This document shows, in pieces, positions 42,992 through 62,446 of a stretch of 64,000 nt of DNA. Below the pieces are notes generated by a model, which was not told the origin of the DNA, made no database searches, and saw only the letters and a list, made by a program, of their open reading frames with translations. Source of the DNA: a virus; IMG/VR virus record IMGVR_UViG_3300042898_001429, positions 30,523 to 94,522 of that record; one strand, written 5' to 3'. The stretch's first letter is position 1. Every line of letters begins with the position of its first letter. The position numbers and the translations under genes were made by a program.

Positions 42992-42997
42992 ACACGA

Positions 42998-45581: not shown

Positions 45582-45585
45582 ACAA

Positions 45586-45921: not shown

Positions 45922-46085
45922 TAGTTGGACTCATCATAATGATACATCTGCTGGTACTCTACATCACTTGTTTTAAACTTACGTAGTTTCCCAGTTCTGT
46001 CGTAATACAAGGTGTTACCCTCATCATCCGTGTACTCATTCTCTTCTGGGTCACTCCAGCGCTTAGATGTTGGCATATAGATAGT

Positions 46086-48511: not shown

Positions 48512-48825
48512 TAGTAACCGTACTGTACTGGGATAAAGGAGTCAGGGTTCAAGTCGTGTGCGATAGCGGTGCGGTGGTGACCATCCATAATGGTAGGTGC
48601 ACCCTTGCGGTCATTCAACCGAACTGGTGTTTGTACACCATTTTTCTTAATATCTTCTCGTAAACCAGAATAGGTAAGGGAAGGACCCTTACTTTGATAT
48701 ACATGCTCTTGATATAGGTTTGAATCTTTAAGACTTGATGCACTTGGGTCGTCGTTAGCACCAAAATTAACTAGTTCACCTGCTGTAAAGAACAAACGAC
48801 GCTGTAGGTGTTCAGATGCTGACAT
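48511..48825 (-). CDS. ParB/Sulfiredoxin N-terminal-domain protein (no HTH)
   Basis: LREDIKKNGVQTPVRL...IMDGHHRTAIA. Confidence 0.75.
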   Translation of the reverse strand: MSASEHLQRRLFFTAGELVNFGANDDPSASSLKDSNLYQEHVYQSKGPSLTYSGLREDIKKNGVQTPVRLNDRKGAPTIMDGHHRTAIAHDLNPDSFIPVQYGY

Positions 48826-49553: not shown

Positions 49554-49864
49554 TATTCAACCTGCTTCAGCGCAAGTGGGGAGATGGAGTGTTTGAGTAC
49601 TTCACCGTTCTCTGCCCAGTCCCAAGGTGCAGAATTAGGTAATTCAACAGAAAACACTGCATCACCGTACTCACGAGCGTTATTAATGTTTTCAGAGAGG
49701 TATACACCTTCAGGATGCCCTGCCTCGTGGGTTTCACCCTCTTCTAGACCTTCATAGCCTTCGGCAGGGTTGTGTGCTACTAATCCATGCTTCTTGATGG
49801 ATTCAACGTTTTTGCTATTCGTACCATGATAGAAGGTATGGAACTGGTGGCGATTAAGAGTCAC
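49553..49864 (-). CDS. ADP-ribosyltransferase-fold protein (H-Y-type)
   Basis: FYHGT...SIKKHGL...GVYLSENINNAREYG..VFSV. Confidence 0.65.
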   Translation of the reverse strand: MTLNRHQFHTFYHGTNSKNVESIKKHGLVAHNPAEGYEGLEEGETHEAGHPEGVYLSENINNAREYGDAVFSVELPNSAPWDWAENGEVLKHSISPLALKQVE

Positions 49865-50100
49865 TTATAGTCCCAAGAGCCGATGCTTGTAGAGCATGAT
49901 GGACAAGTAAAACCATCTGGGTAGGAAGATTGAGGACCTTTACCAACATGAGACAAGCGTATTGCGTTTGTGTTCTTACGGTCAACTAGAGCGTATTCGG
50001 GGTCATTCTTTGCACAATCTGTACATATGGCTTCTTCACCAGTATCATACCCAACAATAGGGTTACCAGCACTTTCGTGAAAATGTTCGTTACGACTCAT
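49861..50100 (-). CDS. Small Zn-binding protein
   Basis: CTDC...CPSC; TAAACT-N6-ATG leaderless start. Confidence 0.6.
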   Translation of the reverse strand: MSRNEHFHESAGNPIVGYDTGEEAICTDCAKNDPEYALVDRKNTNAIRLSHVGKGPQSSYPDGFTCPSCSTSIGSWDYK

Positions 50101-50115: not shown

Positions 50116-50131
50116 TGTTTCACGTGAAACA
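50116..50131. promoter_or_regulatory. parS: parS site (chromosomal type)
   Basis: TGTTTCACGTGAAACA, perfect 16-bp palindrome. Confidence 0.85.
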
Positions 50132-50247: not shown

Positions 50248-50270
50248 TACCCCCCTAACCATGGGGGGTA
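50248..50270 (-). terminator. Hairpin plus U-run directly after cassette promoter 1
   Basis: Minus strand TACCCCCC-ATGGTTA-GGGGGGTA then TTTT. Confidence 0.5.
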
Positions 50271-50275
50271 CTCTC

Positions 50276-50314
50276 ATCTTAGCACGGCTGAGGGGAAGCC
50301 GAGGGGGGGGGGGG
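50276..50314 (-). promoter_or_regulatory. Cassette promoter 1 (no ORF at +1)
   Basis: C12-TCGGCT-N15-TAAGAT. Confidence 0.8.
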
Positions 50315-51040
50315 TCAGTCTACTGAGACCGAGAACGTCATTTCTCCGAGGGCTTCACGCACTTTGTCTGTGAGGTCAAGGTTGTCCACCGCATTCTCTA
50401 CCGCCTGAGCGAATGAGTAGGACTCTGTGACATCATCCACGATGTCCTTGTCGTCAAATGCGCTCTCTACTGCGCTCTCAATCTCCACGGATACTTCCGC
50501 CATGACTTGCTTGACAATAAGGCTAATGAGTTGGGCGACTAGGTCGCTGGCTGTTGTTACTGGGCTTGTGTATGTTTCCATAACTCCATCGTAGGCGCTG
50601 GGCGCTGGAGCCGAGGGAGGGGGGGTCAGCGCCGCATTTACTTGCATAGTGCAACTAGATGTTTCACGTGAAACATTTTGAGGGCTATATGTTTCACGTG
50701 AAACATCGGAGGGGGATAAGGGCAGGCTTTCACCACGTACACGTGCATTCAGTATTGCTACACGCTCACAGGGCACCCACGCATCCAGCGTATCTATGTT
50801 CACGCCCACCATGTCCTCGCCCACCTCTACGAAGGCTCCAGCCTTGAGAGCATTCGCCCATGTATAAGCCTCTTCAGCCTGACGGAGGAATTGCCCAGCA
50901 AACTCCATAGTTCCAGCATCAGCCAGTTTCCCAGCCATATCTAGATAGTACTCACCAGCCACCCATATATGGTGCCCAAGTGAATAGCCTCCCATGTAGT
51001 AGTGGCGTGTCGTGTTGTGTGTTGTCGTGTCGTTGTTCAT
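50315..51040 (-). CDS. Hypothetical protein; internal leaderless start at 50581 gives a separate 88-aa acidic protein
   Basis: Promoter 3 heads ATG 51040; promoter 2 heads in-frame ATG 50581. Confidence 0.65.
   Translation of the reverse strand: MNNDTTTHNTTRHYYMGGYSLGHHIWVAGEYYLDMAGKLADAGTMEFAGQFLRQAEEAYTWANALKAGAFVEVGEDMVGVNIDTLDAWVPCERVAILNARVRGESLPLSPSDVSRETYSPQNVSRETSSCTMQVNAALTPPPSAPAPSAYDGVMETYTSPVTTASDLVAQLISLIVKQVMAEVSVEIESAVESAFDDKDIVDDVTESYSFAQAVENAVDNLDLTDKVREALGEMTFSVSVD
50588..50625 (-). promoter_or_regulatory. Cassette promoter 2 (leaderless, ATG 50581)
   Basis: TCGGCT-N15-TACGAT-N6-ATG. Confidence 0.8.
50660..50675. promoter_or_regulatory. parS: parS site
   Basis: Within the 18-bp palindrome ATGTTTCACGTGAAACAT (50659-50676). 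Confidence 0.85.
50690..50705. promoter_or_regulatory. parS: parS site
   Basis: Within the 18-bp palindrome ATGTTTCACGTGAAACAT (50689-50706). Confidence 0.85.
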
Positions 51041-51046
51041 GTCTTC

Positions 51047-51084
51047 ACCTTAGTCGTGTCGTGTTGTATCCGTGGGGGAGGGGG
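51047..51084 (-). promoter_or_regulatory. Cassette promoter 3 (leaderless, ATG 51040)
   Basis: ACGGAT-N15-TAAGGT-N6-ATG. Confidence 0.8.
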
Positions 51085-51105
51085 TGGTAGGTCGCTTGGC
51101 GCCGC

Positions 51106-51378
51106 CTAATCCAGCATCCCCATGTACTCTAGGTCTTCCATCGTGGAGGCGTATCCATCTAGGTCGTCTCCCAGTAGGTCAGCGATAATTCCACGTGCCT
51201 CTGCTCGGCTGTCTGCTCTGCATCCGCTCGTCTCGTAGTCGGAGCCGTTGAAGGCTTCGCACCCTTTGGCGCTGAAGTCTTTGGCGACTTTGGAGTAGGT
51301 CGTGCCCATCTCCTGTGCCACCTCGTGGAGCGTTTCGTTCTCCCAAGGTTCTCCGCAATTCCTGCAATATATGTCCAT
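51106..51378 (-). CDS. Hypothetical protein (CRNC)
   Basis: Start MDIYCRNC after AAAGGG RBS. Confidence 0.65.
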   Translation of the reverse strand: MDIYCRNCGEPWENETLHEVAQEMGTTYSKVAKDFSAKGCEAFNGSDYETSGCRADSRAEARGIIADLLGDDLDGYASTMEDLEYMGMLD

Positions 51379-51415
51379 GTCGTTGCCCTTTCTAGTGGCG
51401 CTGGTTGATATCTCC

Positions 51416-51452
51416 ACCTTAGCCCACCCTCCTGTGAGCCAGTAGGGGGGGG
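51416..51452 (-). promoter_or_regulatory. Cassette promoter 4 (leadered; ATC at +1)
   Basis: CTGGCT-N15-TAAGGT. Confidence 0.75.
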
Positions 51453-51474
51453 TGTCGTGTGGCGTGTCGTGTCG

Positions 51475-51867
51475 CTATCCGTACGTCACTTCTCCCAGCA
51501 TGGCGTACTGGAGGATGGCGTCTCCGTCTCCAGCGTCTAGGTCATCCCAGCGTGTCCACGGGCATTGTGCGATGATGGCATTGACTCCTCGTGCGATGTC
51601 ATTGACAGATAGCGCCTTCACGATTACCTTCGCAGGCTCGTCTGTCTCGTAGGTGTCAGGGTTAGCGATAGCCAACTTGAAGTAGATGGCGTCAGGGTCA
51701 GATGGAATGATATCCCAATCATATTCCTGAGCATATATGGGGGTTGTGCGCCACCAGTCGTAGCCTGCCTCGTCCCAGCCTGAACCCATTACGCCACTAA
51801 TTAGTTCCTTCGTGGGTACTGGCATGGTTATCTGTGTGTGTTGTGTGGTGTGTTGTGTCGTTGTCAT
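51475..51867 (-). CDS. Hypothetical acidic protein
   Basis: Leaderless; C-terminal DAGDGDAILQYAMLGEVTYG, related to 53904..54236. Confidence 0.75.
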   Translation of the reverse strand: MTTTQHTTQHTQITMPVPTKELISGVMGSGWDEAGYDWWRTTPIYAQEYDWDIIPSDPDAIYFKLAIANPDTYETDEPAKVIVKALSVNDIARGVNAIIAQCPWTRWDDLDAGDGDAILQYAMLGEVTYG

Positions 51868-51873
51868 GGTTTC

Positions 51874-51909
51874 ATCTTAGGGTGTGGTGTGGATAGCCGA
51901 GGGAGGGGG
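51874..51909 (-). promoter_or_regulatory. Cassette promoter 5 (leaderless)
   Basis: TCGGCT-N15-TAAGAT-N6-ATG. Confidence 0.85.
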
Positions 51910-52233
51910 TCAGATGCTGAAGAACACGTGCCCATTGGTCTCCCAATAGTCGTGGCGTAGTTCACGTGCCCATGCCTTGTAGTCAATGAAGCCCACAAGG
52001 TGGTCGGGCACTTCTACCGTTTCGTCAAATAACTGCTCGGCAAAGTCTGCAAAGTCGTTATACTCACCACGGTATGAGTCAATGAAGCCAGCCACCTCTG
52101 ACTCGTAGTCGCTGTCAATGTGGTGGTTATCGCAATAGACCGCAAAGGCTTCGTGGTCAATGCCATGGTCTTGGCACAGCACCTGCACTTCTTCGTTATC
52201 GGCAATGTGTGTATATGTTTGGGTCGTTGTCAT
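51910..52233 (-). CDS. ardA: ArdA-like antirestriction (DNA mimic) protein, C-terminal domains
   Basis: YRGEYNDFADFAEQLFDETVEVPDHLVGFIDYKAWARELRHDYWETNGHVF; very acidic. Confidence 0.75.
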   Translation of the reverse strand: MTTTQTYTHIADNEEVQVLCQDHGIDHEAFAVYCDNHHIDSDYESEVAGFIDSYRGEYNDFADFAEQLFDETVEVPDHLVGFIDYKAWARELRHDYWETNGHVFFSI

Positions 52234-52601
52234 ACACTCACCTTAGCCTGTGGCGTGTCTAGCCGAGGGAGGGGGTGTGCTTCGCACCATTGGCACAGCC
52301 AGCGCACAGCATCGTCAGGTGTGTCGTTACACTCGTAGCCGTCAATGGGGTCGCCGTTGTCGTATCGTGCCCTGTCGCCGTCTAGTTCCCAGCGTGTTGA
52401 GTAGGTACTGGTGGTGTCGTCATAGAACTCATCGGCGTCTGCTACTTCGCCCACTACCCACACCTCTCCAGCGATAGTGCCCTCATAGGCACGTCCCATA
52501 GACCAGTTGTACCCAGCATTCTTATTGAGTGTGAATGTCACACGTTCACCATTACAGTAATCGTAGATAATCTTGGGTGTTTGCGTTTTGTTCGTTGTCA
52601 T
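52230..52601 (-). CDS. Hypothetical acidic protein
   Basis: Leaderless start. Confidence 0.7.
   Translation of the reverse strand: MTTNKTQTPKIIYDYCNGERVTFTLNKNAGYNWSMGRAYEGTIAGEVWVVGEVADADEFYDDTTSTYSTRWELDGDRARYDNGDPIDGYECNDTPDDAVRWLCQWCEAHPLPRLDTPQAKVSV
52240..52275 (-). promoter_or_regulatory. Cassette promoter 6 (leaderless)
   Basis: TCGGCT-N15-TAAGGT-N6-ATG. Confidence 0.85.
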
Positions 52602-52607
52602 ATCTGT

Positions 52608-52643
52608 ACCTTAGTCGTTGTCCGTGTTAGCGGAGGTAGGGGG
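52608..52643 (-). promoter_or_regulatory. Cassette promoter 7 (leaderless)
   Basis: TCCGCT-N15-TAAGGT-N6-ATG. Confidence 0.8.
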
Positions 52644-52772
52644 TGTGTCGTTGATGCCCGCAAGTTCTAGTGCCTCTGCGTGCTCCATGTCCATGTTGAG
52701 TATTCGTGCGATGCCGTAGGCTAGTGCCCGTGTCATTGCATTGGTGAAGTCGTTGTCTGTGTCGTTGCTCAT
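52611..52772 (-). CDS. Small hypothetical protein (53 aa)
   Basis: Manual ORF MSNDTDNDFTNAMTRALAYGIARIL..., headed by promoter 8. Confidence 0.65.
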   Translation of the reverse strand: MSNDTDNDFTNAMTRALAYGIARILNMDMEHAEALELAGINDTPPTSANTDND

Positions 52773-52778
52773 GTTCAT

Positions 52779-52816
52779 ACTTTACTTGTTGGTGTTGGTA
52801 GCCAAAGGGGAGGGGG
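52779..52816 (-). promoter_or_regulatory. Cassette promoter 8 (leaderless)
   Basis: TTGGCT-N15-TAAAGT-N6-ATG. Confidence 0.85.
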
Positions 52817-52997
52817 TGAGTAGAGTCTCAAATAATTCTTTGGTCTTATTGAAACTGTCATCTTCATAGACAATGGTGTTATCTACGTTGTCCCACACGT
52901 GATACCACGTGCCTCCGTCGTAGTCGTGGTTAGTGTCCACACATTTGCTTAGTTCATAACGTCCATCTTGGGACTTCATGCGTGTTGTCGTTGTCAT
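52782..52997 (-). CDS. Hypothetical protein
   Basis: Leaderless start. Confidence 0.7.
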   Translation of the reverse strand: MTTTTRMKSQDGRYELSKCVDTNHDYDGGTWYHVWDNVDNTIVYEDDSFNKTKELFETLLTPSPLATNTNK

Positions 52998-53003
52998 ATT
53001 CTC

Positions 53004-53041
53004 ATCTTAGTTGTTGCTCGTGGTAGCGAGGGGGGAGGGGG
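53004..53041 (-). promoter_or_regulatory. Cassette promoter 9 (leaderless)
   Basis: CTCGCT-N15-TAAGAT-N6-ATG. Confidence 0.8.
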
Positions 53042-53318
53042 TCAGGAGTTTCTTCATTCCGATAGGGTAGCGCTTGACCGTTCCGTCAGGCTCAATGCGG
53101 AATGAGCCACACGTTGTTGCCAGCCATTGGTGTTCACCGTTTGGCGTTAGGCGAGATACGGAGCCTGTCATGGCACCGTCACGCTGTTCACGTCCTAGTT
53201 CAATCACGTACTCCACGCCATTGACAACATACACGTTGCTCTTTCCTGTGGCGTCTACACATAGTTGAACCCATTGGCGGTATGTGTCATCTGCATCTTG
53301 TCGGCATGAGTAGCCCAT
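53007..53318 (-). CDS. Hypothetical protein
   Basis: AAAGGA RBS. Confidence 0.7.
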   Translation of the reverse strand: MGYSCRQDADDTYRQWVQLCVDATGKSNVYVVNGVEYVIELGREQRDGAMTGSVSRLTPNGEHQWLATTCGSFRIEPDGTVKRYPIGMKKLLTPSPLATTSNN

Positions 53319-53350
53319 TATCGTTGTCCTTTGTTCGTTGCGATGTCTTC

Positions 53351-53386
53351 ATCTTAGTTTGTCGTTGTTATAACCAGTAGGGGGGG
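53351..53386 (-). promoter_or_regulatory. Cassette promoter 10 (leadered; ATC at +1)
   Basis: CTGGTT-N15-TAAGAT. Confidence 0.75.
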
Positions 53387-53387
53387 T

Positions 53388-53635
53388 AGTCGTATGTTTC
53401 ACACTTCGTCTGCGTGACCATTGGTGGCTCTACCTGCCACCCTCGTATTATCTGACCATACTTGTCAGACTGACACTTTATCTCCCTGCCAGCAAATGGG
53501 ATGTTTAGGTGAATATCTCTCGTCACGCCCTAACGTATGACTTACTCAGGCGATATCCTGCCTGTACCTAGTTTCCATACCTCCCACACCCCCTAGGTTG
53601 GATGTGGGAGGTCTTAGGGGTTTGTTGCCCTAAGA
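53388..53635. ncRNA. Candidate structured non-coding element
   Basis: About 245 bp without a long ORF, containing at least six inverted repeats, some nested. Confidence 0.35.
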
Positions 53636-53860
53636 ACTTTGTAATTCTTTACACGGATGCGTGGTATATGTACCGAGTTCACCCATGATGGCGTGTGCCT
53701 CCTGAAGGCTTGAAGCAAACAATGAAATGTCTGCTTTACCTACGTGGATAGCGACGATAGCAAAGTTGCCAAAGTCAGTTACCCTTGCGGAAATGTGTGA
53801 TGCCTCCACGTGATGGAAAGATATCCCTGTCAGTATTGGTTGTGTTGTTTCGTTGCTCAT
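53630..53860 (-). CDS. Hypothetical protein
   Basis: Leaderless start. Confidence 0.7.
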   Translation of the reverse strand: MSNETTQPILTGISFHHVEASHISARVTDFGNFAIVAIHVGKADISLFASSLQEAHAIMGELGTYTTHPCKELQSS

Positions 53861-53866
53861 GTCTTC

Positions 53867-53903
53867 ATCTTACTTTCTTGTTGTTGTAGCCGAGGGGGAG
53901 GGG
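53867..53903 (-). promoter_or_regulatory. Cassette promoter 11 (leaderless)
   Basis: TCGGCT-N15-TAAGAT-N6-ATG. Confidence 0.85.
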
Positions 53904-54236
53904 TTAGGAATACTGGACGTCACCGAAGAAACCGTATTGCCACACATAGTCACGCTCGTGTGAGTCTGTCTCCATGCGTATGAGTTCCTGAGTTTCTTCT
54001 TGTGAGTGTGCTAGTGCATACAACCTGAGTCCACGTAGTAGTGTCTCGGTGTCATACGTCAGTATTACGTTGTCTTCGTACGTGAACCATAGTTCACCGC
54101 TTGGGTATTCTTCCGTTTCGTAATAACCAGCCCAATGGCGAGTGCCATCGTTGCTCTTCATAAAGTCCACCCATTCGTCTGTGACGATTAGTGAATACTC
54201 TACTTTTACTTCGTATCGTGTTTGTGTCGTTGTCAT
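53904..54236 (-). CDS. Hypothetical acidic protein
   Basis: Leaderless; DYVWQYGFFGDVQYS tail. Confidence 0.7.
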   Translation of the reverse strand: MTTTQTRYEVKVEYSLIVTDEWVDFMKSNDGTRHWAGYYETEEYPSGELWFTYEDNVILTYDTETLLRGLRLYALAHSQEETQELIRMETDSHERDYVWQYGFFGDVQYS

Positions 54237-54242
54237 GTTCTT

Positions 54243-54278
54243 ATCTTACTTTCCTGTGATGTTAGCCAAGGGGGAGGG
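54243..54278 (-). promoter_or_regulatory. Cassette promoter 12 (leaderless)
   Basis: TTGGCT-N15-TAAGAT-N6-ATG. Confidence 0.85.
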
Positions 54279-54665
54279 TCACCACGTACGTTGCCAGTTA
54301 TCGCCCATTTGTTCTGTGAGCATCTTCATCTCACGCTTGGTTACGCTTGCTACGTCTTTCCAGTTGCTGAATGCACGTGTCAAGCCCATTGCCAACCTAC
54401 ACGCCAGTTCTGCCCAGTCTTCTAGTGTTGGGTCTTCGTGGTTCTCATTAGCCTGTGCAGTCTCAATAAGCACGATGTCTGCTAGGCATTGTGGGCAGTA
54501 TTGCCCTCTTACACGCTCTCCCTCTTCGTACGCCCATCCAGTACCGTGGTCGTAGTGAGTCCATGTGCGCTTTGTCAATGGGTGTTTTTCCTCATTGTCA
54601 AAATCGTTACAACCATCGCACTTGTCGTTGGTCTTTCCAGTTTCTGTAATTTGTGTCGTTGTCAT
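54279..54665 (-). CDS. Hypothetical Zn-finger protein
   Basis: CDGC...CPQC; leaderless. Confidence 0.7.
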   Translation of the reverse strand: MTTTQITETGKTNDKCDGCNDFDNEEKHPLTKRTWTHYDHGTGWAYEEGERVRGQYCPQCLADIVLIETAQANENHEDPTLEDWAELACRLAMGLTRAFSNWKDVASVTKREMKMLTEQMGDNWQRTW

Positions 54666-54671
54666 GTTCGT

Positions 54672-54707
54672 ATCTTAGGTCGTGGTATTACAAGCCGAGG
54701 GGGAGGG
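54672..54707 (-). promoter_or_regulatory. Cassette promoter 13 (leaderless)
   Basis: TCGGCT-N15-TAAGAT-N6-ATG. Confidence 0.85.
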
Positions 54708-54864
54708 TCAGGTCACGGTCACACTTGATACAAATGCACCCTGACTCACCTGTCAATGCAGAGTCACAGTCGTAGGGCAAGCGTTCATATATCACTAAGA
54801 TGTCCAGCGTAGAAGGCTCTCCGCAATGGTCACAGAATGTAATGTGGTCGTTGCGATTACTCAT
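54688..54864 (-). CDS. Small Zn-finger protein (58 aa)
   Basis: Manual ORF MSNRNDHITFCDHC...CIKCDRDL; TAATG-coupled. Confidence 0.55.
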   Translation of the reverse strand: MSNRNDHITFCDHCGEPSTLDILVIYERLPYDCDSALTGESGCICIKCDRDLTLPLGL

Positions 54865-55106
54865 TAGAGATTGTCTCCGTGTTGGTCGGTGTAGAGGAGG
54901 TCTTTGGTGCCATTGCTCCTGAAGTCATCCTCTACCAACATTTCCACGTACTCCATGACATCATCATAGGTGACTTCTATGTCGGCATCACCTCTGTTGT
55001 CTTGATGTATCGTGCGCACTATCTCTTCCACGTCATACGTGAATACACGCATTACGTTGATGTGTGTGATGGTGTCTTGTGAGTCGGGGTTGATTATCGT
55101 TGTCAT
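54864..55106 (-). CDS. Hypothetical acidic protein
   Basis: Leaderless start. Confidence 0.7.
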   Translation of the reverse strand: MTTIINPDSQDTITHINVMRVFTYDVEEIVRTIHQDNRGDADIEVTYDDVMEYVEMLVEDDFRSNGTKDLLYTDQHGDNL

Positions 55107-55112
55107 GTCTTT

Positions 55113-55148
55113 ATCTTACGGGATGAGTACGTCAGCCAAGGTAGGGGG
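55113..55148 (-). promoter_or_regulatory. Cassette promoter 14 (leaderless)
   Basis: TTGGCT-N15-TAAGAT-N6-ATG. Confidence 0.85.
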
Positions 55149-55574
55149 TGTCTGACCATCGTCATACAGTCTTCCTTGCTTCGTGTAGTCCACGTTGCCT
55201 AGGTTGCTCACCATGACACTAAGGTCGTACTGGTGATAGGTCGTACCGTCATATGTGAGATGTTGCTTCGGTGCTACAAACGCTGGTGAGCATGGGCATT
55301 GGCAGTATGCGTATTGGTTCCATTGCATTCTAGAGCCATCAAAATCTAGTCCTGCCTCAGCAAGGATGCGTAGTGCGTGTTTCTTGTACTCAGCGTGTGG
55401 ACGTCGTGTGCGATTGTTGAGGTTGTCTAAGACAGTCTCAGTATCTGAGTCTCCCCATACCGACACTCGTGGTCGTACGTTCATGCGGAATGCTGTCATG
55501 TTCCTAGTCCACGTGCGTGGTTGGATGTAGATAGTTCCACTTGGTGTTGTGATTGTTATGTCGTTGTTGCTCAT
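55116..55574 (-). CDS. Hypothetical protein
   Basis: WNQYAYCQCPCSPAF motif; leaderless. Confidence 0.7.
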   Translation of the reverse strand: MSNNDITITTPSGTIYIQPRTWTRNMTAFRMNVRPRVSVWGDSDTETVLDNLNNRTRRPHAEYKKHALRILAEAGLDFDGSRMQWNQYAYCQCPCSPAFVAPKQHLTYDGTTYHQYDLSVMVSNLGNVDYTKQGRLYDDGQTPPTLADVLIP

Positions 55575-55810
55575 GACTTCACCTTAGTCCACCAACGCTT
55601 TAGCCGAGGGGGAGGGGTTGAATACTTAGTGATGGGTGTACCCTTCAGAGCGCCTAACTCAACAATGGTTACATCACTTCCATTCTCGTACCATTCTTCC
55701 AATAGAAACTTCTCGTACTCGTCTAGTGTGTCTGTGTCTACTACGACCACCTGTGGGTCATAATTGAGGACTGTGCCTGTCACCATGTCAATAAGAATAA
55801 TGTTGCTCAT
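55571..55810 (-). CDS. Hypothetical protein
   Basis: GGAGG RBS, ATGA overlap. Confidence 0.65.
   Translation of the reverse strand: MSNIILIDMVTGTVLNYDPQVVVVDTDTLDEYEKFLLEEWYENGSDVTIVELGALKGTPITKYSTPPPRLKRWWTKVKS
55581..55617 (-). promoter_or_regulatory. Cassette promoter 15 (leaderless)
   Basis: TCGGCT-N15-TAAGGT-N6-ATG. Confidence 0.85.
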
Positions 55811-56052
55811 TCGTATTCCTCCACGATTAGGTGTCCAGCGTCATTGCCTTCTTGGTCTGAACTTACGATTGCATATGTGCTGTCGGTGAACTCAATAACG
55901 ATGGTATTGACATACACGTTGTTATGCTCTCGCTGATACCATCCCATGCCCTTTACTTCTTCGTCAATCATGTGGCGAACTCGCTTGATTGTCTTACCAG
56001 CAAGTCCCCTGATGGCAGGGTCAAAATGCTCTGTGTGCTTTAGTGTTTTCAT
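55807..56052 (-). CDS. Hypothetical protein
   Basis: LAGKTIKRVR...SSDQEGNDAG; leaderless. Confidence 0.7.
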   Translation of the reverse strand: MKTLKHTEHFDPAIRGLAGKTIKRVRHMIDEEVKGMGWYQREHNNVYVNTIVIEFTDSTYAIVSSDQEGNDAGHLIVEEYE

Positions 56053-56058
56053 ATCTTT

Positions 56059-56094
56059 ACTTTAGTTGTCGTTGTGTGTAGCCAAGGGAGAGGG
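56059..56094 (-). promoter_or_regulatory. Cassette promoter 16 (leaderless)
   Basis: TTGGCT-N15-TAAAGT-N6-ATG. Confidence 0.85.
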
Positions 56095-56589
56095 TCACCA
56101 TGATGACTGGTAGGAGAACTCCCAACCCCATCCACTAGTGTCTGACAGCGTGGGGTCATTCAGCAGTTGTTCAAGGGTAAGCGCCGTGTATAAGACGTCA
56201 TTGTAGTATTGCTCATTCACGTCAGTATCTCCAAAGAAGAACCCCGACGAAGTTGGCAGTACCTCTTCTGAGAAGGCATTGTCACGCTTTGCGTACACTT
56301 GCCTGCAAAGGTCTAACAATGTTTCTAAGTTCTCTTTGCTAACGTAATACGAACGGCAGTCGTCCTCGCCACCCTGTACGTTGTTCACGAACCAGTTGTG
56401 GATTTGGTTTGCTTTGCGCCATTGCCCTACCTTGATAGTGACTTCAGCAGATGGCATATTGTCAGTAATAAATAAATGTGAAACTTTCAATGCCTTTGCT
56501 ATTTCAGCAAAAGTGTTCTTGTCTGTGTCGTTGCTGTGGTCTGCGCCTGAAACGTATTTCTTAGCGGAGAGGTATTGGTCTAATCCCAT
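56095..56589 (-). CDS. Conserved phage protein (MGLD...WRKANQIHNWF...GFFFG...YQSSW)
   Basis: Recognisable widespread phage motif set; AAGGA RBS. Confidence 0.75.
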   Translation of the reverse strand: MGLDQYLSAKKYVSGADHSNDTDKNTFAEIAKALKVSHLFITDNMPSAEVTIKVGQWRKANQIHNWFVNNVQGGEDDCRSYYVSKENLETLLDLCRQVYAKRDNAFSEEVLPTSSGFFFGDTDVNEQYYNDVLYTALTLEQLLNDPTLSDTSGWGWEFSYQSSW

Positions 56590-56629
56590 GTCGTTGTCCT
56601 TTTTGTTGTTTGTTGTTTGGTTTAGTTGT

Positions 56630-56665
56630 ATTTTATCTCAGCACGTTTGTAGCCGAGGGAGGGGG
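56630..56665 (-). promoter_or_regulatory. Cassette promoter 17 (leadered)
   Basis: TCGGCT-N15-TAAAAT. Confidence 0.8.
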
Positions 56666-56668
56666 TTG

Positions 56669-57088
56669 TTAGTCATTACCATTTACTGTGTCAATAACTA
56701 TTTGGCATACTGTGTCTAGGACATCAGCAGGCATACCTTCTAGGTACGCAAGAAGGTTATCTTGTAGTCTTTGCTTTAATTCTTTTACTTCTTCACCCTC
56801 ATACGAAATGTAAGTATCTATTGCAACTTCTACGTAGTCAGTCCACGGCTCGCTGGTCACGAAGTAACCAATGCGATTTACAAACGCTTTTCCAGCGACA
56901 ATAAGTGTTCCTTCATCACCGTCTACCCATGTCCACACATTGTTTTCGGGTTGTTCGTGTACGAAGTCAAACTCGGTGTCGTAGGTCTCAAACATAGTGC
57001 CATTCCATGATGCGTCAGTATCTAGGTGGTTGGTAATAGGCTTGTATTGTTTTTCCCATTGGTCTTCAGTAATTTGTGTGTCGTTCAT
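56669..57088 (-). CDS. Hypothetical acidic protein
   Basis: MFETY...NVWTWVDGD...VNRIGYFVT; TAATG-coupled start MNDTQ. Confidence 0.7.
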   Translation of the reverse strand: MNDTQITEDQWEKQYKPITNHLDTDASWNGTMFETYDTEFDFVHEQPENNVWTWVDGDEGTLIVAGKAFVNRIGYFVTSEPWTDYVEVAIDTYISYEGEEVKELKQRLQDNLLAYLEGMPADVLDTVCQIVIDTVNGND

Positions 57089-57321
57089 TAGATGACCCAC
57101 ACTTCTACGTCATCTAGGTCTGTGTCATCAAGTGATAATTGGTTGATAATAAAACCCTTGCCGTTTTCTGCTGGGTCACTAGGTTCACTTACCGTAACGT
57201 TGGTAATCCACTCTTCTGCAAAAGTATCAGCGTTCCAATCACTTGGGATTTCTGCTTCTACTGTGACAGACAATTTGATTGTTTGCGTAAAACGTATTTT
57301 GTTCATTTGTTGGTTGTTCAT
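57088..57321 (-). CDS. Hypothetical acidic protein
   Basis: Leaderless start. Confidence 0.7.
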   Translation of the reverse strand: MNNQQMNKIRFTQTIKLSVTVEAEIPSDWNADTFAEEWITNVTVSEPSDPAENGKGFIINQLSLDDTDLDDVEVWVI

Positions 57322-57327
57322 GTTCTT

Positions 57328-57363
57328 ATCTTATCTTTTGTTGTGCATAGCCAAGGGGGAGGG
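57328..57363 (-). promoter_or_regulatory. Cassette promoter 18 (leaderless)
   Basis: TTGGCT-N15-TAAGAT-N6-ATG. Confidence 0.85.
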
Positions 57364-57442
57364 TAAGCCCTGTGAGGAGTGTTCCGCTTCTATCGTAGGG
57401 CAACGACGAACTACGAGAGCGAAACACCCCTCACAAGGCTTA
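57364..57442 (-). other. 79-nt long RNA hairpin
   Basis: About 25-bp contiguous stem with three G-U pairs on the minus strand, plus an inner 6-bp stem. Confidence 0.7.
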
Positions 57443-57625
57443 CCACTCGTGATAGCGAATGGTGCTGATTATAATAGCGCCAACAAAGCACATCATGATG
57501 CCTAAAAAACCCCACCACAATGATGCGCTTTCAATAGTGAACCCTAGCATCATGCCCGTGGCGTAGAGAACTACGATGGCTCTCTTCTTGGCTCTAGTCC
57601 ATTTGACCCAGTTAGTGACGTGCAT
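57440..57625 (-). CDS. Small two-TM membrane protein
   Basis: Hydrophobic segments; TAATG-coupled. Confidence 0.6.
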   Translation of the reverse strand: MHVTNWVKWTRAKKRAIVVLYATGMMLGFTIESASLWWGFLGIMMCFVGAIIISTIRYHEW

Positions 57626-57897
57626 TAGAAATCACGCTCTACTAACTCATAGCCCATGACTAAGTCAATGTACCAAGAGTCATCTACTTGAAACTCTGCT
57701 TCATGCTGTGCAATGGCTTTTAGCAAACGTTGTTGCTCGTGGTCAGTAAAGTAGTAGAACACTTCGTCATCAGGTATTCCATATGAGTCATGCTTCATGT
57801 CTGTCTCATAATCATATGTGCCGAATGATACGTAAAAGTATTCAGGGTCTTCGTTGAGCCACACTACGTGGCACTTTATTCCAATAATTGTTGTCAT
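57625..57897 (-). CDS. Hypothetical acidic protein
   Basis: GAGGT RBS after promoter 19. Confidence 0.7.
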   Translation of the reverse strand: MTTIIGIKCHVVWLNEDPEYFYVSFGTYDYETDMKHDSYGIPDDEVFYYFTDHEQQRLLKAIAQHEAEFQVDDSWYIDLVMGYELVERDF

Positions 57898-58163
57898 CGT
57901 GTTACCTCTACCTTTACTTTACTGTGGAGTGTATTGAGCCGAGGGAGGGGGGCACGAGATAAGCGCACAGGAGGAGACACATGGAATGCCTTACCCCATT
58001 GCATATCATCTTCTGCCACAACGTCCTCGTACTCAACTACTTTGCCTTGCTCGTGGTCAATGAAGAGCAGTAGATTGCCTGCGTGGTCAATGTGTATCCC
58101 GACATACCAATCGTCCATGTGTAGGTACGATGTGCCGTCTCGCTGAACGATATTGTTATTCAT
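57894..58163 (-). CDS. Hypothetical protein
   Basis: Likely start MNNNIV. Confidence 0.55.
   Translation of the reverse strand: MNNNIVQRDGTSYLHMDDWYVGIHIDHAGNLLLFIDHEQGKVVEYEDVVAEDDMQWGKAFHVSPPVRLSRAPLPRLNTLHSKVKVEVTR
57916..57952 (-). promoter_or_regulatory. Cassette promoter 19 (short leader)
   Basis: TCGGCT-N15-TAAAGT. Confidence 0.8.
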
Positions 58164-58344
58164 CGTATTCCACAATTTCCCATGGTCTGTCCCAGCCCAC
58201 AGAGCCATCTGAGTCTTCTGACTTTAGTTGGTCATCATCATAAGAGTTGTAGATGTTCTCTGCCTCTTCTGCCGACTCTGCCTCAATCACGTACATATGA
58301 CTGACGTTTTCAGTTACATAAACTGCGTATTGTTTCTTGCTCAT
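58156..58344 (-). CDS. Small acidic protein (IEAESAEEAE motif)
   Basis: Likely start MSKKQY after AAAGG RBS. Confidence 0.6.
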   Translation of the reverse strand: MSKKQYAVYVTENVSHMYVIEAESAEEAENIYNSYDDDQLKSEDSDGSVGWDRPWEIVEYDE

Positions 58345-58499
58345 CTCTGAGACCTTTCTATTTGTTTGGTTTCGGTTGCTATTACTTCTTGTGTGGTGTC
58401 TACACACACGGACTCGTTCCATCCGAACTTGAGTGTTGCCTCATATGCGCTGTCTGCTTCTACTTCATGTACGTGACGAGTGATTATTTCATATGTCAT
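58341..58499 (-). CDS. Small protein (VEADSAYEA motif, 52 aa)
   Basis: Manual ORF MTYEIITRHVHEVEADSAYEA...; ATGA overlap. Confidence 0.45.
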   Translation of the reverse strand: MTYEIITRHVHEVEADSAYEATLKFGWNESVCVDTTQEVIATETKQIERSQR

Positions 58500-58513
58500 G
58501 GTGTATAAAGGCA

Positions 58514-58837
58514 TTACTTATTCCAATCTGTTGGGAAAGGAATGGGGATTTCGTATTCCTCATCGTAGTTGGGTACACCATTGACTACTGGGTAAGCAAG
58601 GCAGACAATGTCTGTCAAGTTACGGCTGACGTAGTTGAGGTCTACCCTGTCGCCAAAGGCAAACCAGTAGTCCATCTCTTCAATGTCATATCCGCTTGGC
58701 TCATCCAGTTGTTTGCGATAATCGGTGAGCATATCATCTAGTTTTTCCTTGATGGCGTGCTCAACTGCAAAAGCAGTAATCTGCTCAAGGTTGCGCTGGA
58801 TGTAGTGGAATGTATCGTCATATTCTTGTGGGGTCAT
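58514..58837 (-). CDS. Hypothetical acidic protein
   Basis: Leaderless start. Confidence 0.7.
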   Translation of the reverse strand: MTPQEYDDTFHYIQRNLEQITAFAVEHAIKEKLDDMLTDYRKQLDEPSGYDIEEMDYWFAFGDRVDLNYVSRNLTDIVCLAYPVVNGVPNYDEEYEIPIPFPTDWNK

Positions 58838-58843
58838 GTCATT

Positions 58844-58881
58844 ACCTTAGTTGTTAGTGGGTTGAGCCGAGGGGGAGGGGG
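58844..58881 (-). promoter_or_regulatory. Cassette promoter 20 (leaderless)
   Basis: TCGGCT-N15-TAAGGT-N6-ATG. Confidence 0.85.
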
Positions 58882-59008
58882 TCACGGGTTTGGCTAACCA
58901 TGTCCGTAACGATTTGCATTCTTTACAGAATTGGTCGCCCATGGCATTTCTTATTACTGCCTTAGTTTCTAAGCAGTAGTCACATGTATCTGTTCGTGTT
59001 GTTTCCAT
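58847..59008 (-). CDS. Small Zn-finger protein (53 aa)
   Basis: Manual ORF METTRTDTCDYC...FCKEC..., headed by promoter 21. Confidence 0.6.
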   Translation of the reverse strand: METTRTDTCDYCLETKAVIRNAMGDQFCKECKSLRTWLAKPVTPSPSAQPTNN

Positions 59009-59014
59009 AACCCC

Positions 59015-59055
59015 ACTTTAGTTTGTAGGGTTGGTAGCCAATGGGGAGGGGGGGG
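59015..59055 (-). promoter_or_regulatory. Cassette promoter 21 (leaderless)
   Basis: TTGGCT-N15-TAAAGT-N6-ATG. Confidence 0.85.
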
Positions 59056-59056
59056 T

Positions 59057-59088
59057 CTCCCTCGGCTCGGTAATGAGTGTGCCAAGAT
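59057..59088 (+). promoter_or_regulatory. Cassette promoter 22, divergent, upstream of helicase
   Basis: CTCCC-TCGGCT-N15-CAAGAT (non-consensus first base), then AAGGAG RBS. Confidence 0.65.
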
Positions 59089-59108
59089 GGGCACAAGCAA
59101 GGAGACAC

Positions 59109-60992
59109 ATGAACGGCATTACACCAAGACAGCAACGTGACATACATGATGCACTAGAACAACGCATGACCCCACTAGAAATGGTTGGGTGCATTGACGA
59201 ATGGATTAGTTCCATGGAGTTAGACAAACTGACGTTCAAGTCAGCATCCACATTGCTGGATTACTTAGCGTATCTTCCCGTAGAAAGAACGCCTGCGCTG
59301 GCTCACATCCCTGAAGAAGCCACACGCATAATTGTAAATACCGCTAAGGGCAAGTGCCACCTATGCAATGAGATAATCACTGCTGGTCAAGGGCACAAAG
59401 CCTTCATAAATGGTGCGTGGTGGATTTTTCATGCCGTTGATAAGTGCCCTGCCGTAAGTGTCGTAAATGACATCGTGTATTCCTCACAGTTACGACCAGC
59501 ACTTGATGAGTTTGTACAAACTTTAGACAAGGTAGAGGCACAGATTATCCCTGATGAGGCTTTGTTCAAGTTGTCAAGTTCTAAGGATTTTGACCTAGAT
59601 TTTGACCTAGAACTACCACTCCTTGGTTACCAAAGGTCGGCTGTTGAATACGTACGCCGTACCCATCGCACGTTGGTATGTCAGGACATGGGGCTTGGTA
59701 AGACACCGATTGGTATTGCTGTAGCGCATATGGCAGTAACCGAGGGTTACAAGGTAATGATTTCAGTACCTCCAAACCTTCTGTACCAATGGGGTGCTGA
59801 GATAAAGAGGTTCGCCCCTTGGCTCAAGGTGGCATCTATCAAGGGTCGTAAGACATACAAGTTGCCAAAGTGTGACGTGTTGTTAGTGCCTGACTCCATC
59901 ATTGACTCATGGCAGAACAAACTTGTCGGTAAGTTCACCAGTCTCATTGTTGATGAGGCACACCGCTTCAAGAGTGAGACAAGCAACCGCACTAGAGGCT
60001 TGTCTCTTATCGCCTCACAGGTTCCCAAAGATGGTTACTGTGTCCTGCTATCGGGAACTATTATTCCTAATCGCCCCTCAGAGTTTATTTCACCGTTGAA
60101 GATTATCGGGAGGCTTGACCCCATCTTTGGTACTAAGAGGCAGTTCCTCATTCGCTATTGCGATTACCAAATAGTCAACGGGTTTCCGTACACAAAGGGA
60201 GCCACCAACACCACGGAACTCAATGAGATACTCAGGAGCACCGTCTACTCACGTACTCGTAAAATTGACGTGTTAGAAGACCTACCCCCTAAGCGCAGAG
60301 CACAACTAGACATAGAATTATCCGATAGTTCTATGAACAAGTACCGCAATGCTGAGGCAGACTTCCTTGCTTGGGTCATGGAGAACTACGGGGCGGATGC
60401 GCACAAAGCGGCGAGCAAGGCTCCAGTCATCACAGAGATAAATAAACTTAGGCAGTTGCTTGGTGAGGCAAAGGTGGAGCCAGCGTGCGCTCACATCCGC
60501 TCACTGCTGGAGGCAGGAGAACAGGTCATTGCATTCGCATACCATTCCAGCGTCATCAACGCTCTCAAGGAACACTTCAAGAATGATGGAGTTGTCGTTG
60601 TTGCTGGTGGCATGACTGCCGAAGCCAAGAACAATGCCGTTACTAAGTTCACCAATGGTGAGGCTCGTTTGTTCATTGGACAGTACGAAGCAGCGAGTGT
60701 CGGTCTCAACCTTCAAGTTGCCAGCCACGTGGTCATGGTTGAAATACCATGGTCACCAAGTGTTGGTGCACAAGCAGAGGACAGGGCATGGCGCTATGGC
60801 GTCAAGAACGCCGTAGTTGCTTGGTGGCTGACAGCCATTGACCCCAATGCACCAACCATTGACGCTCGTATGTGGCGTATATGTAATGCCAAGCAAGAGA
60901 GCATCTCAGCATGTCTTGATGGTTGGGCTGAGGACATGAACGCCGAGGCAGGTAGTGTGACAGCCCTTCTCCTTGAAGAGATGATGTCATGA
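59109..60992 (+). CDS. SNF2-family (SMARCAL1/HARP-like) helicase
   Basis: DMGLGKT, IVDEAH, LLSGT, VGLNL, QAEDRAWRYG; start reassigned to ATG 59109 after AAGGAG. Confidence 0.9.
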   Translation: MNGITPRQQRDIHDALEQRMTPLEMVGCIDEWISSMELDKLTFKSASTLLDYLAYLPVERTPALAHIPEEATRIIVNTAKGKCHLCNEIITAGQGHKAFINGAWWIFHAVDKCPAVSVVNDIVYSSQLRPALDEFVQTLDKVEAQIIPDEALFKLSSSKDFDLDFDLELPLLGYQRSAVEYVRRTHRTLVCQDMGLGKTPIGIAVAHMAVTEGYKVMISVPPNLLYQWGAEIKRFAPWLKVASIKGRKTYKLPKCDVLLVPDSIIDSWQNKLVGKFTSLIVDEAHRFKSETSNRTRGLSLIASQVPKDGYCVLLSGTIIPNRPSEFISPLKIIGRLDPIFGTKRQFLIRYCDYQIVNGFPYTKGATNTTELNEILRSTVYSRTRKIDVLEDLPPKRRAQLDIELSDSSMNKYRNAEADFLAWVMENYGADAHKAASKAPVITEINKLRQLLGEAKVEPACAHIRSLLEAGEQVIAFAYHSSVINALKEHFKNDGVVVVAGGMTAEAKNNAVTKFTNGEARLFIGQYEAASVGLNLQVASHVVMVEIPWSPSVGAQAEDRAWRYGVKNAVVAWWLTAIDPNAPTIDARMWRICNAKQESISACLDGWAEDMNAEAGSVTALLLEEMMS

Positions 60993-61030
60993 CCCCCTCC
61001 CCCTTGGCTTTAAGACCGAACAGATAATAT
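60993..61030 (+). promoter_or_regulatory. Cassette promoter 23 (leadered)
   Basis: TGA|CCCCCTCCCCC-TTGGCT-N15-TAATAT. Confidence 0.85.
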
Positions 61031-61076
61031 AAGACCAACAGGGACAACGTCCCAACAAACATAAGGAAATAATACA

Positions 61077-62108
61077 ATGAGCAGAGAAACTAGCAAGACG
61101 CTAAATACCATGACGCTAATCGGTAACGTCGCCAAGCGTGGTTCTAACGCATGGCATTATCGTGCAGAGTCCCAAGGTGGAGAGCCAAACCATTACGACG
61201 GAGCAATCCCCATTGAAGACGTTGAGCGCCGTCTCTTCTTCTGGAACGCTGTTGAAGCACCAGTATTCGTAGGCGTCCGTGACGAGCGTGGAGACATCAT
61301 CCGTTACATTGAACAGCCTGACCGCAAAGCAATCATGCGTGATGACAACAACCACGTGATGGGTATGTTCAAGGAAGATTACGCTATCCATCAGTATCGC
61401 CACACACTTCTTGACAACGTCAGCAACATCATTGACAACAACCAACTGGTTGTGGACTCTGCTGGATGCTTGCGTGAAGGTGCCATCGCTTGGGTAGCAG
61501 TATCCATGCCCGACAACATTGAAACCTCAGCGGGTTTCCCTGTACGCCCAATCTTGTTGGCAACCACCAGCCACAACGGAACTATCGCAACCACCTACAA
61601 GCAGGTGTATAACGCCCCTGTATGTGACAACACGTTGTTCGCAGGTTTAGGTACTGATGGAGCACAATTCAAGGCTCGCCATAGCAAGCACAGTGATATG
61701 AAAATCCAATCAATTCGTGAAGCACTGGACATCGTGTTCAGCATGAGCGAAGACATCATTGCTGAGATTGAAAGACTGTCCAACATTACAGTCACTGCTA
61801 ATGAGTGGGACGCCATTGTCAATCGCCTCATCCCTGTGGGAGAAGCAGAAACTACTCATCAAGTGTCCATTACACGTATGCAGAACAAGCAAGAAATAAT
61901 GCGTAACCTGTACCGTACCGACCCAATGGTTGCGCCATGGCATGGCACCGCATTGGGAGTTCTTCAGGCTTTCAATACCTTCCAGCACCACGTTGCTGGT
62001 GACAACAAGACACGTTCAGAGCGCAATGCAATGAACTCACTCAACGGAAAGATACAGCAGTCAGACGCCAACGTAATCTCAGTCATCAACGACTTGGTAC
62101 TGGCGTGA
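61077..62108 (+). CDS. DUF932 family phage/plasmid protein
   Basis: AWH, DSAGCLREG, LLATTSHNG, VCDNTL, RHS, GTALGVLQAF motifs. Confidence 0.8.
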   Translation: MSRETSKTLNTMTLIGNVAKRGSNAWHYRAESQGGEPNHYDGAIPIEDVERRLFFWNAVEAPVFVGVRDERGDIIRYIEQPDRKAIMRDDNNHVMGMFKEDYAIHQYRHTLLDNVSNIIDNNQLVVDSAGCLREGAIAWVAVSMPDNIETSAGFPVRPILLATTSHNGTIATTYKQVYNAPVCDNTLFAGLGTDGAQFKARHSKHSDMKIQSIREALDIVFSMSEDIIAEIERLSNITVTANEWDAIVNRLIPVGEAETTHQVSITRMQNKQEIMRNLYRTDPMVAPWHGTALGVLQAFNTFQHHVAGDNKTRSERNAMNSLNGKIQQSDANVISVINDLVLA

Positions 62109-62119
62109 CATTGGTGGTG

Positions 62120-62154
62120 GGGGGAGAGGTGGTGTCAAACGCCATCTCTTTCCC
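62120..62154 (+). terminator. Hairpin after DUF932 gene
   Basis: GGGGGAGAGGTGGTGT-CAA-ACGCCATCTCTTTCCC, 16-bp stem with G-U pairs. Confidence 0.55.
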
Positions 62155-62170
62155 TAGCCTCCGCCATGTA

Positions 62171-62446
62171 ATGAACACAGGGTGGCGTGAAAACGCCAGT
62201 TGTGCAGACCTCCCAAAGGCTGTCTTCTTTGATTACCAATCAGGAACTACAGAACACAAAAAACAAACTGTTGCGTTAGCAATGGCGACTTGTAAGGGAT
62301 GTAAAGTGCGTTCTCAGTGTTATGAGTTCTCTGTGATGAACAATGAGCCATTCGGTATTTGGGCTGGGACGTACCCACACCACAGAAAGAGGCTGTTCAG
62401 ACAGTTCAAGGTTACAGGGATTCTAGAACCTCAAGAAGTCGTTTAG
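62171..62446 (+). CDS. whiB: WhiB family transcriptional regulator
   Basis: WRENASC...CKGCKVRSQC...FGIWAG; likely start MNTGW. Confidence 0.88.
   Translation: MNTGWRENASCADLPKAVFFDYQSGTTEHKKQTVALAMATCKGCKVRSQCYEFSVMNNEPFGIWAGTYPHHRKRLFRQFKVTGILEPQEVV

Follow-up and report, generated by a model that had tools for sequence, protein, structure and literature searches.

We analysed a 64,000-nt window of viral DNA (bases 30523-94522 of the IMG/VR contig IMGVR_UViG_3300042898_001429), in which a single 11-kb block (50.27-61.04 kb) carries an array of 23 promoter-like copies of fixed geometry, most of them placed directly before a small gene. Positions are given in window numbering unless marked "genome", and the numbers that name minus-strand -10 boxes are their low coordinates. 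The source, an uncultured phage of actinobacteria, is a single contig of 94,522 bp with 45% G+C and a 237-bp terminal overlap, rated complete by CheckV. It encodes a contractile-tailed virion (tail sheath 8092-9603, SPP1-type portal 16970-18658, large terminase 22776-24338) together with two WhiB-family genes, DUF932, two SNF2 helicases, PolA, DnaB, RecA and PD-(D/E)XK nucleases, and its closest cultured relatives are BRock-like Streptomyces myoviruses, at a terminase identity of only ~46%. The minus strand holds nearly all genes; the array forms the 5' end of a long leftward transcription unit and diverges from a plus-strand helicase-DUF932-WhiB1 operon. Megablast of the array block against 50,697 phage records returned no matches, and neither did Rfam and tRNA scans of the block.

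Each copy combines an upstream element ending in a hexamer, a 15-nt spacer, a -10 box and an A that stands 7 nt after this box. The original prediction, made from the sequence alone, was exact on most of this architecture: all 23 copies lie where it had placed them, the hexamer is TCGGCT in 11, TTGGCT in 7 and a variant in 5, the spacer measures 15 nt in 23/23 with no conservation of its sequence, the A is present in every copy, and the start types divide into 16 with a leaderless ATG at +1, six with a leader and a Shine-Dalgarno (SD) sequence, and one without an open reading frame (ORF). Two details had to be amended. The -10 box, described as TANNNT, has that form in 22 of the 23 copies, the exception being 59083(+) with CAAGAT, and is in fact narrower (mostly TAARRT); the non-purine variants TAATAT, TACGAT, TACAAT and TATAGT still keep T1, A2 and T6, the following N6 is purine-rich, and conservation reaches the first codons (ATGACAACGA opens many genes). 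The TGA reported before the C-run is confined to a minority of copies, many upstream stops being the TAA of the -10 instead; promoter DNA is often the end of the upstream gene, whose stop appears as this TAA, as a TGA abutting the C-run or as the TGA of ATGA. The element of this genome, which we term type A, is CCCCTCCCC followed by TYGGCT; it is 16 nt long and asymmetric, ends 15 bp before the -10 and lies at -43..-28.

We assessed the copies statistically with a 59-column weight matrix and leave-one-out scoring, using 30 Markov shuffles of the 94.5-kb genome as the control. Leave-one-out scores are 24-59 bits in 22/23 copies, against a best score in the shuffles of 3.4 on average and 18 at most, and these 22 copies are statistically robust. 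Copy 59083(+) is degenerate, scoring -4.8 bits, with a G-run that holds only a short TCTCCC. Because its orthologues in related phages of types B and C (see below) are full, leaderless copies, we regard it as a decayed member of the array and not a chance match. The whole-genome scan with the weight matrix, which the original prediction had proposed as a check, finds no copies outside the block, and no site of the element lacks a -10 exactly 15 nt away; 23 sites fall in the block, and the two weak matches elsewhere are at shuffle level. The array block contains the A-type composite pattern 17 times; exact-pattern scans of IMG/VR recover it in one near-identical contig only (L001), and 596 Gb of cellular genomes (185,579 species genomes) gave 22 scattered single matches, none of them actinobacterial, and no multi-copy motif.

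Cassettes 1 to 21 are on the minus strand and run leftward from the point of divergence. In cassette 1 (59008..59051; CCCCTCCCCA+TTGGCT, N15, TAAAGT; 56 bits) the +1 is the ATG of a 53-aa CxxC..CxxC gene. Leaderless starts are likewise found in cassettes 2 (58837..58880, 107-aa gene beginning MTPQ), 4 (57321..57364, 77-aa gene at 57083-57315), 6 (56052..56095, 81 aa), 7 (55574..55617, 152 aa), 8 (55106..55149, 80 aa), 9 (54665..54708, 128 aa), 10 (54236..54279, 110 aa), 11 (53860..53903, 76 aa), 13 (52997..53040, variant CTCGCT, 71 aa), 14 (52772..52815, 53 aa), 15 (52601..52644, variant TCCGCT, 123 aa), 16 (52233..52276, 107-aa ArdA antirestriction gene at 51910-52233), 17 (51867..51910, 130 aa) and 19 (51040..51083, variant ACGGAT, 241-aa gene, ORF 51040-50315). 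Leaders with an SD follow cassettes 3 (57909..57952, 12 nt, SD AGAGG, 90-aa gene), 5 (56623..56666, 34 nt, 164 aa), 12 (53344..53387, variant CTGGTT, 26 nt, 103 aa) and 18 (51409..51452, variant CTGGCT, 31 nt, 90 aa with a weak helix-turn-helix (HTH)-like stretch). Cassette 20 (copy 50588, 50581..50624) sits within the 241-aa ORF and in its frame; the leaderless internal start of this cassette would give rise to a C-terminal isoform of 88 aa. The +1 of the ORF-less cassette 21 (50269..50312) leads directly into a terminator-like hairpin just past this last copy (CCCCCC-ATGGTTA-GGGGGG followed by TATTTT, 50250..50268, minus strand), which is the only convincing terminator found on the minus strand of the block; none lies between cassettes. 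On the plus strand, the degenerate divergent copy 59083(+) (59052..59095; TCTCCC+TCGGCT) is followed by a 14-nt leader with AAGGAG and an SNF2 helicase gene (ATG 59109-60992), and the DUF932-WhiB1 operon has its own cassette (60994..61037) with a 40-nt leader, ahead of DUF932 (61077..62108) and WhiB1 (62105..62446), the fastest-evolving of the syntenic genes.

Around the left end of the array, a palindrome of the host-chromosome parS type, TGTTTCACGTGAAACA, occurs in three copies (50116-50131, 50660-50675 and 50690-50705). Two of them are inside ORF 51040-50315, just upstream of the internal promoter copy 50588, and the third is in the 169-nt leader between the last promoter with its hairpin and gene 50100-49861.

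A TANNNT box with a purine start 7 nt further on is the geometry of actinobacterial sigma-A promoters, and the copies of the array are best read as promoters. Three observations bear out the proposal that they are the genes' own promoters and that most of these transcripts would be leaderless. First, the SD energy of the 16 leaderless cassettes averages -4.7 kcal/mol, which is chance level (-4.1 +/- 2.6 in shuffles), whereas leadered copies (-7.1) and translationally coupled array genes (-7.4 kcal/mol) do have an SD; with their ATG at the predicted +1 and no SD beyond chance, these 16 cassettes are predicted to produce leaderless mRNAs. Second, the same element-N15-TANNNT arrangement also heads six genes with separate leaders and SDs of their own, which argues that the -10 hexamer is not a ribosome site. 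Third, the leader of DUF932 contains a hairpin (GGGAC-AAC-GTCCC at +5..+17, 61041..61053, plus strand) that starts between +4 and +9 in every lineage and whose stem exists in compensatory versions among relatives (GGGAC/GTCCC, GGGGC/GCCCC, AGAGGC/GCCTCT, GAGG/CCTC and GGGGT/ACCCC); since a stabilising hairpin at the 5' terminus makes sense only with a start at the predicted place, it supports the predicted transcript start. These observations, with the retention of T1 and T6 in the non-purine -10 variants, make it extremely improbable that the copies are not promoters at all and that TAARRT-N6-ATG is instead a ribosome-binding arrangement, its upstream word being a translation-associated element, or one acting as RNA, comparable to SAS/ESAS in cluster K mycobacteriophages, even though pairing with the anti-SD reaches -8 to -10 kcal/mol in some -10/N6 stretches (TAAGGTGA). 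We also considered a double role of the -10 as SD for read-through transcripts, which is unsupported on average, given that the leaderless cassettes do not differ from shuffles.

Upstream of the -10 the copies depart from the canon, as had been proposed: a sigma70 consensus scan (TTGACA-like -35, 16-18 nt spacing) finds 0/23 copies and yields 12 matches in the block against 14.7 expected. A promoter-like site of the canonical form, TTGACA-N17-TAGTAT, is present at 20751-20825 upstream of gene 20466-20750, which suggests that the private class coexists with ordinary sigma-A promoters.

For comparison with relatives, more than 90 IMG/VR loci were gathered by searching with the flanking helicase and with an alignment of DUF932. 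Within the clade of DUF932 identity >=69%, every locus keeps the order of 16-nt element, 15 nt, TAARRT, 6 nt and A/ATG, and the spacing from the element to the -10 is invariant in more than 100 promoters over all lineages; the scan of relatives thus finds the geometry maintained with different words. At least eight element types can be distinguished: type A in this genome and L001; type B, CCCCTACCCC + AYGCAC (L002, L009 and others, 18-20 sites); type C, C8-9 + NAGCAC (L004); type D, CCCCATCCC + TTAGAT (L005); and four types that share TAGGATT, namely E1 with TGGACAA (L010, L011, L013 and others), E2 with CGTCCAC (L024), E3 with CGTGACT (L025-L029) and E4 with CGCCACT (L032). The C-rich character singled out by the original prediction therefore holds for this genome but is no essential part of the design, since the sister lineages carry TAGGATT. 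Across types the 5' half of the element evolves slowly and the 3' hexamer fast, to the extent that hexamers already differ between lineages only ~15-20% apart in protein sequence, and in the orthologous DUF932 promoter the words of all types sit at the identical position. What appears to be new here is this combination, in which the geometry is kept while the element at -43..-28 is rewritten lineage by lineage.

The next outgroup (DUF932 identity 56-59%, contigs to 97 kb) has GTTGCAA-N17-TAGNTT, with a canonical -35, at its DUF932 promoter, the site to which the outgroup comparison applies, as the outgroup flanks end short of the arrays. From this canonical outgroup state and the lineage-specific types it follows that the clade swapped a normal -35 for a new element and then diversified it. 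In the same outgroup loci (L033-L053, e.g. L038:5900-5990) an 8-bp inverted repeat flanks the -10, CCACGGAG..TAGTTTTAT..CTCAGTGG, with arms that change compensatorily between lineages; it could be an operator or a cruciform/hairpin feature of the promoter.

Orthologous promoters could be compared directly in 10 pairs between types A and B and in seven pairs between types A and C. Hexamer identity in these pairs is 26-28%, which is about random, while spacers are 50-54% and -10 boxes 83-93% identical; among non-orthologous copies within one genome, by contrast, hexamers are 64-82% and spacers 35-41% identical. Within a genome, no segment is thus better conserved than the hexamer, and between orthologous promoters none is conserved less. 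That conservation has sharp edges and that orthologous spacers are retained both disfavour the copying of whole promoters, and the concerted switch of the hexamer requires either a trans-acting reader with changed specificity or gene conversion restricted to the element. Under the second option there would be no specific reader, and short-patch conversion between cassettes (molecular drive) would keep the element uniform within a genome, the element serving mainly as homology for the shuffling of cassettes. Conversion tracts would end naturally at the non-homologous spacer, the phage encodes RecA and PD-(D/E)XK nucleases, cassette indels fall exactly at junctions, and cassette order differs between types A and B, with some cassettes lineage-specific. 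We nevertheless judge this explanation very unlikely, as a 16-nt block is below the usual homology requirements, neither position nor spacing varies by a single base, the outgroup has a functional -35 at that position, and the -10 and start region are equally repeated yet not private.

We favour the first option, and our leading interpretation, held with confidence only a little better than even, is that ~22 copies are hybrid promoters that join the -10 of host sigma-A to a private upstream element, read by a polymerase-associated positive reader that is likely phage-encoded. The host housekeeping (sigma-A type) polymerase would read TAARRT at -12..-7 and start 7 nt downstream, so that in the 16 leaderless cassettes the start base would be the A of the ATG. 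As an internal ATG lacking an SD would go untranslated from a read-through transcript, each small gene would need a promoter of its own. In place of the ancestral -35 there would stand the 16-nt asymmetric element at -43..-28, made of the slow 5' half (the C-run here) and the fast 3' hexamer, whose centre is near -30. The usual site of sigma region 4 would be taken by a DNA-binding factor, specific to the lineage and most likely encoded by the phage, that would read the element and position or activate the polymerase, much as MotA does at its box in T4 or PafBC at its -26 element. The dedicated reader suggested by the original prediction thereby becomes a stronger proposition, given that the element is rewritten in concert in each lineage; the phage sigma factor and the WhiB named as its candidates gained no support (see below).

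We prefer such a positive reader to a repressor operator because the spacing admits no change, orphan sites are lacking and the -35 has been lost. On a repressor model, host sigma-A would read the promoters constitutively through the -10 alone, and a phage repressor bound to the element as its operator, for early-gene shut-off or immunity, would cover the -35 region; the rewriting of the element would then amount to immunity diversification, comparable to that of cluster A mycobacteriophage repressors and their stoperators. The sites are indeed asymmetric, multi-copy and oriented with transcription, actinobacterial promoters can act with a -10 only, the outgroup palindrome across the -10 of the DUF932 promoter means that repression may be ancestral, and the three parS-type palindromes by the array hint at a plasmid-prophage lifestyle. 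Steric repression, however, needs no spacing that is constant through all lineages, the genome is free of the orphan sites that stoperators would lead one to expect, and within the clade the element arose precisely at the site of the lost canonical -35. A tyrosine integrase search of the genome found none, and no repressor-like HTH is present among the proteins screened. We consider a repressor operator unlikely.

Several points weigh against a positive, phage-encoded reader. Many actinobacterial sigma-A promoters work with the -10 alone, so that activation is not strictly required, and if the array genes are immediate-early, a phage-made activator must be packaged or basal transcription must suffice. 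No candidate reader emerged from our searches. In a screen of ~100 of the ~160 called ORFs against Pfam or PHROGs, no convincing DNA-binding domain was seen beyond the two WhiBs and an HTH_36 replication-type protein. Of the domain families for sigma regions 2, 4 and 4_2, PF04542 and PF08281 gave no match and PF04545 only 10.9 bits in the 90-aa array protein; a six-frame search for MotA and AsiA (PF09158, PF09010) gave no match at E<=1, and the WYL domain PF13280 has none in the phage. Furthermore, no co-variation with the element is seen for WhiB1 or WhiB2, for the 90-aa protein with its HTH-like stretch or for the N-terminus of SNF2.

WhiB1 shares the promoter class, forms a distinct subtype in the clade, and is 56% identical between types A and B and 27-33% identical to the outgroup, compared with ~57% for its neighbours. 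Element identity, however, tracks the overall phylogeny (rho = 0.84 with DUF932), a partial Mantel test of WhiB1 against element identity controlling for DUF932 gave r = -0.22 (p = 0.98), and types C and D share a C-terminal WhiB1 tail yet carry different elements; WhiB1 is therefore not supported as the reader. The other candidates failed for want of divergence or of a suitable domain. The 90-aa protein with the sole sigma-region-4-like match is 90% identical between types A and B, with an identical HTH; the 107-aa MTPQ protein is present in types B and C at ~78% identity, which is too conserved; the N-terminal region of SNF2 has no domain-specific divergence; and neither the small fast-evolving genes at genome 5.9-12.1 kb nor the genes at 43-50 kb and 21-34 kb have DNA-binding domains. 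WhiB2 (genome 583-1014, 143 aa; L018) is nearly invariant, its conserved C-terminal HGSWIRYRQGCRCSDC module included, and is far more conserved among relatives than WhiB1. At the DNA level, this genome and the B-type records are collinear at 70-95% identity, differing only by indels and one unalignable DUF7178 gene.

That no phage reader was found, and that element type follows phage phylogeny, would also suit a reader supplied by the host, either a transcription factor or an alternative sigma, with lineages differing by their host or by the host regulator they co-opted. The same holds for the E1 element of a sister lineage, which has TTGTCCAAA on its reverse strand, an 8/9 match to the actinobacterial DnaA box. 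We find a host reader quite improbable all the same. The A-type composite is multi-copy in none of the 185,579 species genomes, the RecA-NDp/PafBC motif (TGTCRGTG-N8-TANNNT) has 0 matches in the phage genome, and hexamers that change at ~15-20% protein divergence do so faster than is usual for the specificities of host regulators. The A-type element matches the DnaA box at only 4/9 positions, and we therefore discarded this likeness as an explanation for this genome. The E1 match itself, seen in the reverse complement of the element in L010, L014 and L027, has p ~0.002 for a random 16-mer, and E2 (TCGTCCACC) has a 7/9 match in the other orientation.

A bolder form of the phage-reader model, which we put forward tentatively as having somewhat less than an even chance, is that a group of related lake actinophages exchanged the -35 boxes throughout their early promoters for a private code. 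In every lineage a small adaptor of its own would dock on the host sigma-A polymerase, read the 16-nt word and co-diversify with it; the adaptors would belong to a novel family without relation to sigma, MotA/AsiA or PafBC, and the naturally orthogonal pairs of promoter and factor would exclude cross-use by co-infecting relatives.

Among known systems, the closest are the hybrid promoters of T4 MotA and of PafBC and the PeSL cassettes, and the array belongs to none of them. T4 middle promoters combine a host-type -10 with a MotA box, (a/t)3TGCTTtA, at 12+/-1 bp from the -10, read by MotA/AsiA through sigma appropriation (PMC2988021). In both systems dozens of promoters per genome have a host-type -10 and a phage-specific asymmetric element that replaces the -35 near -30 at fixed spacing, read in T4 by a monomer. 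Unlike the MotA box, which the array lacks, the array element is 16 nt long, ends 15 bp from the -10, tolerates no change of spacing and is rewritten between close relatives; the phage has no MotA/AsiA homologues, its array transcripts are predicted to be leaderless, and its array promoters, unlike the T4 middle class, head the first genes of the genome. PafBC, a case of sigma adaptation, acts on the actinobacterial sigma-A holoenzyme at promoters with a canonical -10 and a -26 element replacing the -35 (PMC8635444). This likewise pairs a canonical -10 with an adaptor-specific upstream element; PafBC, however, serves a host regulon, and the array differs in lacking the -26 motif, in its unconserved N15 spacer and in the absence of a phage WYL protein. 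The PeSL (promoter-early stem-loop) cassettes of T4-type phages, which consist of canonical sigma70 -35/-10 promoters with a stem-loop terminator (PMC2839356, PMC4122927), resemble the array as repeated early promoters among small, mostly ORFan genes and in cassette-bounded insertion, deletion and reordering between relatives, but the array has no -35 and no inter-cassette terminators, and it has leaderless starts and a lineage-private upstream word. Cluster A stoperators, finally, are asymmetric 13-16-bp sites in 20-35 copies, bound by a monomeric two-domain repressor (PMC9283540, PMC6550527). They share with the array elements their asymmetry, their orientation with transcription and a specificity that diversifies among related phages; stoperators are nonetheless scattered over the genome independently of promoters and block elongation, whereas the 23 sites here lie in one block, each 15 nt from a -10.

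Regarding gene content, the array had been proposed to encode immediate-early host-takeover and anti-defence functions. ArdA (PF07275, 47.7 bits) is the only array protein with a family match and is in keeping with an early role against host defence; Pfam/PHROGs screening assigned the other ~25 array proteins to no family, and host take-over is suggested by analogy only. Cassettes are gained, lost and reordered between relatives. L001, at ~3% DNA divergence, cleanly lacks exactly one gene, that of cassette 4, and because the deletion begins at the leaderless ATG, the promoter has come to stand directly before the gene that follows. In types B and C several cassettes are missing or added, some are reordered and some are lineage-specific.

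How phages take over host transcription has been worked out closely in just a handful of model phages and, to our knowledge, scarcely in those of actinobacteria. The array represents a set of early promoters in which the -35 would have given way to a word that is not the same even in close relatives, the outgroup having kept its box, and hence a dated evolutionary switch. It illustrates why leaderless translation would force one promoter per gene, and how cassettes shuffle. A word swap between lineages is predicted to abolish activity unless the matching factor is supplied, and the reader, if found, would represent a novel means of redirecting the sigma-A polymerase and could provide orthogonal promoter/factor pairs for actinobacterial synthetic biology.

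Some further features were observed in and around the array. Between cassettes 11 and 12, ~260 nt (53368-53630) hold no convincing ORF and contain a hairpin, CCTCCCACA..TGTGGGAGG; this stretch is conserved in type B (a 52-aa GTG ORF is 82% identical) and has no Rfam match, and it represents either a small RNA or a small gene. Downstream of the array, type B lacks the 79-aa gene 49861-50100 and one of two ParB-like paralogues (48074-48511). A three-gene block at 48480-49858, which includes a fragment match to a PARP-like ADP-ribosyltransferase (49553-49864), has 95% DNA identity to a B-type contig compared with 74-87% for its neighbours, which suggests that it was exchanged recently. A sugar/nucleotide enzyme cluster is spread over 42428-47023, 62412-63485 and genome 1473-3175; it comprises GT2, GT25 and GT1-like glycosyltransferases, a methyltransferase, a GDP-mannose-4,6-dehydratase/epimerase and an NT5C 5'-nucleotidase, and possibly serves glycosylation of the virion, the cell envelope or DNA.

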